From sequence record MW822011: DNA of 64,000 nt. One strand, written 5' to 3'. Positions 3,041 through 3,737 of this stretch are shown here, piece after piece. Origin of the DNA: Shigella phage TB004. The first letter of the stretch is position 1; each line of letters starts with the position of its first letter. The notes below the pieces were generated by a model. That model had not been told where the DNA came from. It did no database searches and saw only the letters and a list, made by a program, of their open reading frames with translations. Position numbers and translations under genes: made by a program.

Positions 3041-3282
3041 TGTCTGAACAAACTATTGAACAAAAACTGTCTGCTGAAATCGTAACTCTGAAGTCTCGTA
3101 TCCTTGATACGCAGGACCAGGCGGCTCGTCTGATGGAAGAATCCAAAATTCTGCAAGGAACTTTGGCTGAAATTGCTCGTGCAGTAGGTATTACTGGCGA
3201 TACTATCAAAGTTGAAGAAATCGTTGAAGCTGTCAAGAATCTTACTGCCGAATCTACTGATGAAGCAAAAGATGAAGAATAA
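3040..3282 (+). CDS. 57A: tail fiber assembly chaperone gp57A
   Basis: 80-aa [16 protein letters not shown]..., matches recalled T4 gp57A. Confidence 0.85.
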
Positions 3283-3737
3283 TGGAATTTAAAGACTTTT
3301 CAACGGGTCTTTATGTAGCAGCTAAGTTTTCAGAATTAACACTTGATGCGCTGGAAGAACTCCAGCGCTCTTTACGTGTTCCTAATCCAGTTCCTAGAGA
3401 AAAAATTCACTCGACCATATGTTATTCAAGAGTAAATGTTCCATATGTTCCATCGAGTGGAAGTTTTGAAGTAGCTTCTTCTGGACATTTAGAAGTATGG
3501 AAAACACAAGATGGATCGACTCTTGTACTTGTACTAGATTCTGAATATCTGCGCTGTCGACACATGTATGCGCGGGCACTAGGTGCTACACATGATTTTG
3601 ATGATTACACACCGCATATAACATTGTCTTATAATGTTGGACCCTTATCATTTAGCGGTGATGTACAAATTCCGGTCGTATTAGATCGTGAATACAAAGA
3701 GCCTCTTAAACTCGATTGGGCAGATGATTTAAAATAA
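3282..3737 (+). CDS. 57B: gp57B, 2H-phosphoesterase fold (Acb1 anti-CBASS family)
   Basis: 151 aa; two H-x-T/S motifs (HSTI, HITL); position after 57A. Confidence 0.7.

Follow-up and report, generated by a model that had tools for sequence, protein, structure and literature searches.

Gene 57B of a T4-like Tequatrovirus is almost certainly acb1, encoding a 2H phosphoesterase equal to the anti-CBASS enzyme of T4

Results

Identification of the gene by homology

The open reading frame at 3282..3737 of the window (the whole 64,000-nucleotide stretch of Shigella phage TB004, sequence record MW822011, that was analysed) is almost certainly acb1, the gene 57B of T4, in a T4-like Tequatrovirus, and its product a small, single-domain 2H phosphoesterase that acts against CBASS. 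The product is already known, as the protein equals the T4 enzyme that has been characterised by structure, biochemistry and genetics. The gene and its parts are located as follows:

3282..3737, + strand: acb1 (gene 57B) coding sequence, ATG to TAA, 151 aa
3408..3419, + strand: motif 1, H43-S44-T45-I46 (T4 H44/T46), cac tcg acc ata
3615..3626, + strand: motif 2, H112-I113-T114-L115 (T4 H113/T115), cat ata aca ttg
3711..3734, + strand: C-terminal lid, residues 144–151, LDWADDLK (T4 145–152), the same as in T4

Aligned to gp57B of T4 (NP_049750, from NC_000866), the protein is 100% identical to residues 2–152, and at the DNA level the gene differs from that of T4 by five synonymous and no non-synonymous changes. 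It matches the Pfam family Acb1 (PF23474) with 202.7 bits (cut-off 27), residues 8–149 covering positions 1–144 of the 144 in the profile. When searching the sequences of the PDB, the Acb1 of Erwinia phage FBB1 (7T26/7T27) is found with E = 4.1e-62 and 68% identity over residues 8–148, followed by a weaker match (E = 0.004) to the Acb1-like phosphodiesterase of Burkholderia phage BCSR5 (9Q2G/9Q2Y). Proteins at least 99% identical were identified by tblastn in 498 phage records, T6 included, and about 1,000 further records hold more distant homologues. PHROGs assigns the product to phrog_755, described as ‘RNA ligase’; the corresponding Pfam family 2_5_RNA_ligase2 (PF13563), with 13 bits (E = 0.11, residues 80–122 only), stays below its cut-off of 27. 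When acb1 and the genes around it were scanned with PADLOC, Acb1 was left unmatched, which is expected for a library of defence proteins from which anti-defence proteins are absent. In the clustering at 90%, the sequence that represents T4 Acb1 is named by NCBI after an Enterococcus faecalis assembly, and most likely reflects T4-like phage DNA contaminating that assembly rather than a real Enterococcus gene.

An earlier note, made from the letters of the DNA, had called this frame gp57B, and the name is borne out both by the identity to NP_049750 and by the gene order (4, 2, 3, 1, 57A, 57B), which is the same as in T4. The note had also described the T4 57B product as Acb1, an anti-CBASS factor, for which Hobbs et al. 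(2022; PMC9117128) give biochemical and genetic proof.

The starting point of that note was the pair of motifs HSTI and HITL, taken as the hallmark of the 2H phosphoesterase fold. The pair is present at roughly the spacing proposed (69 residues separate H43 and H112), and only these two of the five histidines in the protein stand in an H-x-S/T context, but the pair alone is an insufficient basis for an assignment. When the product was shuffled 20,000 times, 16% of the shuffles contained at least two H-x-S/T motifs and 6.5% contained a pair 50–100 residues apart. A similar pair is also found in one further ORF among the 80 in the window with 100 aa or more (14537..15007, - strand), which runs antisense to real genes and is probably non-coding. 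As the shuffle statistics are not significant, the pair was dropped as sole evidence of function, and acb1 is identified here because of its homology and not because of the motif pair.

Conserved functional residues and predicted fold

The residues on which T4 Acb1 relies have been described in detail (PMC9117128): a catalytic HxT/HxT tetrad of H44, T46, H113 and T115, four residues that stack on the bases (Y12, W74, F107 and W147), a glutamate that contacts the adenine N6 (E141), and a C-terminal lid, 145–152, that closes over cGAMP. The lid has since been found to be needed for Acb1 activity (Doherty 2025, bioRxiv 10.1101/2025.08.21.671373). With an offset of -1, all of the individual residues are kept in the product, as Y11, H43, T45, W73, F106, H112, T114, E140 and W146, the last of which falls within the lid. 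Alignment of the motif histidines with the catalytic residues of Acb1 had been set beforehand as the check on the earlier reading; when it was run, H43 and H112 aligned with the catalytic H44 and H113. The HSTI motif similarly aligns with H-T-T of the FBB1 enzyme.

In an Acb1-family alignment of 27 sequences, with identities as low as 28%, no variation is seen at H43, S49, L81, V82, P111, H112, T114 and L115, and conservation is at least 90% at T45, Y11, G9, R93, D105, Y109, I113, Y117, E137 and L142.

An AlphaFold2 model of the product, built from the same 27-sequence alignment, has a mean pLDDT of 89.5 and a pTM of 0.82. Low confidence is confined to residues 1–5 and to the lid at the C-terminus, modelled as a short helix; for the lid this is expected because it is flexible. 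When the model was compared to the PDB with Foldseek, the apo structure of FBB1 Acb1 (7T26) gave TM scores of 0.88/0.96 and an rmsd of 0.8 Å over 136 columns, and the rmsd to 7T27 was 1.1 Å. The BCSR5 phosphodiesterase follows with a TM score of about 0.68, and classical 2H enzymes, namely E. coli LigT, T. thermophilus 1IUH, the CPDases of D. radiodurans and Arabidopsis, MHV ns2, rotavirus VP3 and AKAP18, with about 0.45–0.58 at 10–16% identity. The product thus belongs among the 2H enzymes and, more narrowly, to Acb1. The claim that the frame has the paired H-x-T/S motifs typical of a 2H phosphoesterase stands, with both motifs present, each lobe of the pseudo-symmetric alpha/beta fold bearing one of them, aligned with the T4 tetrad and set in a model that has the 2H fold.

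The 57A/acb1 junction and selection on the gene

The gene lies directly behind that of the tail-fibre chaperone, with which it shares one base:

3040..3282, + strand: gene 57A (tail-fibre chaperone), phrog_1002, E = 5e-28
3280..3284, + strand: TAATG junction, 57A stop TAA (3280–3282) and acb1 ATG (3282–3284), one-base overlap

At this point T4 reads AATGATGG and the window AATAATGG. A single G-to-A substitution, at 3281, gives 57A the stop TAA instead of the TGA of T4, and makes the ATG at 3279–3281 an ATA. The change removes the first of the two tandem ATGs of T4, so that the acb1 frame starts at the T4 Met2 and its product lacks one residue compared to that annotated for T4. Of five other relatives compared, four have the TAATG form (236Ecol005PP, PECP20, Klebsiella JD18 and Aeromonas 60AhydR15PP), the fifth, Serratia Muldoon, having a 4-nt overlap with GTG; T4 itself has ATGATGG, likewise overlapping by 4 nt. 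Judged from these junctions, the extra methionine of T4 is the exception and the form found in the window the typical one. Translation of acb1 is likely to be coupled to that of 57A at the TAATG. The Shine-Dalgarno match upstream of the acb1 ATG is weak, and expression of acb1 is assumed for this reason to depend on the coupling.

When acb1 was compared by the method of Nei and Gojobori, dN/dS was 0 against T4 (dS 0.05), 0.05 against 236Ecol005PP, 0.07 against PECP20 and 0.22 against Muldoon; no ratio could be given against JD18 and the Aeromonas phage, where synonymous sites are saturated. These values indicate purifying selection on acb1.

Alternative explanations

Much of the existing annotation suggests a different enzyme, a 2′-5′ RNA ligase or a LigT-type RNA-repair 2′,3′-cyclic phosphodiesterase acting on the ends of tRNA or other RNA. 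The label ‘RNA ligase’ is carried by PHROG 755, by RefSeq T4 and by many phage records, the 2H fold is common to the product and E. coli LigT (E about 1e-4 with Foldseek), and tRNA genes are clustered 1.7 kb downstream. However, the 2_5_RNA_ligase2 profile stays below its Pfam cut-off, and the LigT matches have TM scores of about 0.5, 13% identity and an rmsd of 6–8 Å, compared to 0.8 Å for Acb1. Moreover, the identical protein of T4 cleaves cyclic oligonucleotides and is needed against CBASS while being dispensable otherwise (PMC9117128). We thus consider a ligase or RNA-repair function very improbable, and reject the specific ‘RNA ligase’ assignment as a legacy transfer made at the level of the superfamily, to which Pfam and the fold comparison give no support. 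Coincidence, with the H-x-S/T pair arising in an unrelated small protein, would agree with the 6.5% of shuffles and the one other ORF that have a similar pair, yet it is excluded by full-length homology to Acb1 (E = 4e-62), by the complete identity to T4 and by the invariant histidines, and we give it no weight at all.

The gene could also be Acb1 by descent and still not work, either through loss of its first start or through escape from guards of the Panoptes type. The annotated ATG of T4 is indeed removed by the change at 3281, and acb1 disruptions, both natural and selected by Panoptes, are known from the literature, with Bas43 of the Tevenvirinae having a disrupted copy. Against this, nothing interrupts the frame between the second ATG and the normal stop, no codon differs from T4 in the amino acid it specifies, TAATG is common (in 4/5 of the other phages compared), the same 151-aa protein is present in T6 and hundreds of phages, and the differences from T4, all synonymous, argue for purifying selection. 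A non-functional acb1 is therefore scarcely conceivable, and an intact gene for Acb1 remains our reading of the locus.

Genomic neighbourhood and candidate expression signals

Over the first 25 kb, the best genomes in the database reach 86% coverage with 96% identity, and the window is from a T4-like Tequatrovirus that is not T4 itself. The surroundings of acb1 are as follows, in addition to gene 57A:

364–816: gene 4
816–1640: gene 2
2327–3040: gene 1 (dNMP kinase)
2677..2684, + strand: TATAAATA, T4 late-promoter consensus, inside gene 1 and 605 nt upstream of acb1
3816–4088 and 4149–4457, + strand: two internal-head-protein genes in the place of ipI (phrog_7673 and phrog_2667)

The order 3-1-57A-57B is kept in the T4-like phages of Escherichia, Klebsiella, Serratia and Aeromonas among the relatives compared, and we infer that 57A and acb1 are co-transcribed. 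The late-promoter consensus TATAAATA occurs across the window at a frequency expected by chance. The copy within gene 1 is nevertheless kept as a candidate because its position is conserved, the same element being found at the equivalent place in T4, 236Ecol005PP and PECP20; as a late promoter for 57A-57B it is suggestive only. Such a promoter would be consistent with the onset of Acb1 activity about 15 min into T4 infection (PMC9117128).

Scanning positions 1–6000 for sigma-70 promoters and terminators gave counts equal to those expected from shuffled sequence. One sigma-70-like site, TTTACA-17-TACTAT with a TG, stands at 3751–3779 in the gap behind acb1, where it probably serves the neighbouring gene downstream. 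Ten tRNAs were all that an Rfam scan of the window found, with no RNA element in acb1 or its vicinity.

Downstream of acb1 the genes differ from those in T4. The T4 neighbour ipI, an inhibitor of GmrSD, has no tblastn match in this phage, and both of the genes that replace it start with MKTFKEFINEA, like the capsid-targeting N-termini of T4 IpI, IpII and IpIII. This replacement pair adjoining acb1 is a variable anti-defence cassette. A similar N-terminus (MYTFNEFLAE), resembling an internal-protein capsid-targeting sequence, is found in a 126-aa ORF further along (7366–7746, + strand, phrog_2280), whose C-terminal half is rich in Pro and Lys.

Proposed action and its implications

Since the product is identical to T4 Acb1, the published mechanism should carry over to it; the substrates, chemistry and anti-CBASS phenotype that we propose are thus those of the literature on the identical T4 protein. 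Working without metal ions, the enzyme would bind the cyclic di- and trinucleotide signals made by CBASS CD-NTases, namely 3′3′-cGAMP, cUA, cAAA and cAAG. Y11, W73, F106 and W146 would stack on the bases, making recognition largely independent of their identity, with E140 reading the N6 of adenine, of which at least one would be required, and the lid (144–151) would close over the bound cyclic nucleotide. Acid-base catalysis would then be carried out by the tetrad H43/T45 and H112/T114, the 2′-OH of adenosine attacking the 3′-5′ phosphodiester to give a 2′,3′-cyclic phosphate and then a linear 3′-phosphate. Removal of the signal would keep the CBASS effectors inactive, so that abortive suicide of the cell is avoided and the phage cycle is completed.

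The experiments behind this picture come from T4 Acb1, which cleaves the four signals named, 3′3′-cGAMP, cUA, cAAA and cAAG, and leaves cGG and the 2′-5′ bond of 3′2′-cGAMP uncleaved; the H44A/H113A mutant is inactive, and T4 lacking acb1 plates on CBASS hosts with a more than 300-fold drop (PMC9117128). T4 Acb1 also degrades 2′3′-c-di-AMP, and its over-expression triggers Panoptes (Doherty 2025, bioRxiv 10.1101/2025.08.21.671373). Deletion of acb1 in T4 itself was noted to have no effect regarding Panoptes (PMC12657218). Type II Panoptes restricts Tevenvirinae with intact acb1 and escapers mutate the gene, according to the literature. By analogy, the intact acb1 found here would predict evasion of CBASS at the cost of sensitivity to Panoptes: resistance to many CBASS systems on the one hand, and on the other exposure to Panoptes-type guards, which detect the loss of a decoy nucleotide.

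Acb1 is one of the founding examples of viral enzymes by which cyclic-nucleotide immune signals are erased. Most phage records, RefSeq T4 included, still say ‘RNA ligase’ or ‘hypothetical protein’ and few say Acb1; these labels should read Acb1 in the many records that carry them. It is a long shot that the locus holds something beyond this, either a second set of Acb1 substrates (the cA3 of type III CRISPR, or RNA and tRNA ends with a 2′,3′-cyclic phosphate) or a co-evolving anti-defence module of acb1, acb2 and the swapped internal-protein cassette that predicts host range and Panoptes sensitivity. As the sequence is the same as that of the T4 copy, any extra role would concern Acb1 generally and not this phage.

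Other loci in the window

Other loci noticed in the window beside acb1 include the following:

5483–6436, + strand: tRNA cluster of ten genes (Gln, Leu, Gly, Pro, Ser, Thr, Met/Ile-CAU, Tyr, Asn, Arg)
6458–7012, + strand: 184-aa ORF with a T5orf172/MUG113 (GIY-YIG-like) domain, phrog_5032
15338–15601, + strand: acb2 (vs.4) homologue, cyclic-nucleotide sponge, 95% identical to T4 Vs.4

The vs.4 gene of T4 has been equated with acb2 (PMC12657218), and the homologue matches the Pfam family Acb2_Tad1_hairpin (PF24729) with 70.9 bits. Both known anti-CBASS genes of T4 are thus carried by this phage, acb2 about 11.6 kb downstream of acb1. Just before it, the vs.5 homologue (15124–15298, + strand) matches amino acids 1–17 and 17–58 of T4 Vs.5 in different frames, which suggests a frameshift or a variant gene. 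Further along, the macro-domain protein Tk.4 (17293–17772, + strand; Pfam Macro, 32 bits) is 58% identical to its T4 counterpart, compared to 95–99% for its neighbours, and looks like an allele that has diverged locally or been exchanged.

The tRNA cluster, 1.7 kb downstream of acb1, has two genes more than the eight of T4, Tyr and Asn being extra, with tRNA-Tyr barely above the Rfam threshold (30.2 compared to 29 bits). The homing endonuclease segB of T4 is missing from the cluster, and the ORF with the T5orf172/MUG113 domain, which follows tRNA-Arg, occupies the place of T4 rnaD and rnaC. Finally, denV, encoding endonuclease V, a pyrimidine-dimer glycosylase (13514–13736, + strand), appears to be a pseudogene: the frame stops after about 49 codons, and roughly 41 N-terminal and 39 C-terminal amino acids match T4 DenV in different frames. 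The stretch is 385 bp here compared to about 570 bp in two pieces in the best twelve phage records listed, from which we deduce an internal deletion of about 187 bp.

Comparison with known systems

The closest known system is T4 Acb1 itself, with which the product shares residues 2–152 of NP_049750, its place after 57A, the tetrad, the stacking residues, the glutamate and the lid. The differences are that T4 has an extra N-terminal Met, TGA as the 57A stop, and ipI downstream. FBB1 Acb1 (7T26 apo; 7T27 with 3′3′-cGAMP) also has the HxT/HxT tetrad and the lid, and superimposes with an rmsd of 0.8–1.1 Å, though it is an orthologue from a phage of another genus with F in place of W73 and Y in place of F106.

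At greater distance, the BCSR5 enzyme 2H PDE-9 (9Q2G/9Q2Y; Doherty et al. 2025) has the 2H core, is grouped with T4 Acb1 by structure and degrades 3′3′-cGAMP, but is only about 18–20% identical to the product and bears its lid at the N-terminus rather than the C-terminus. Unlike T4 Acb1, it does not trigger Panoptes, since it is poor on 2′3′-c-di-AMP. The wider LigT/2H superfamily (E. coli LigT 5LDI, T. thermophilus 1IUH, and the 2′,5′-PDEs coronavirus ns2 and rotavirus VP3) has in common with Acb1 the two-lobed fold, the two H-x-T/S motifs and metal-independent transesterification. Its members differ in being larger and without the Acb1 lid, at 10–16% identity and TM scores of about 0.5, and in their substrates, which are RNA ends and 2′-5′ oligoadenylate as opposed to the cyclic nucleotides of Acb1.
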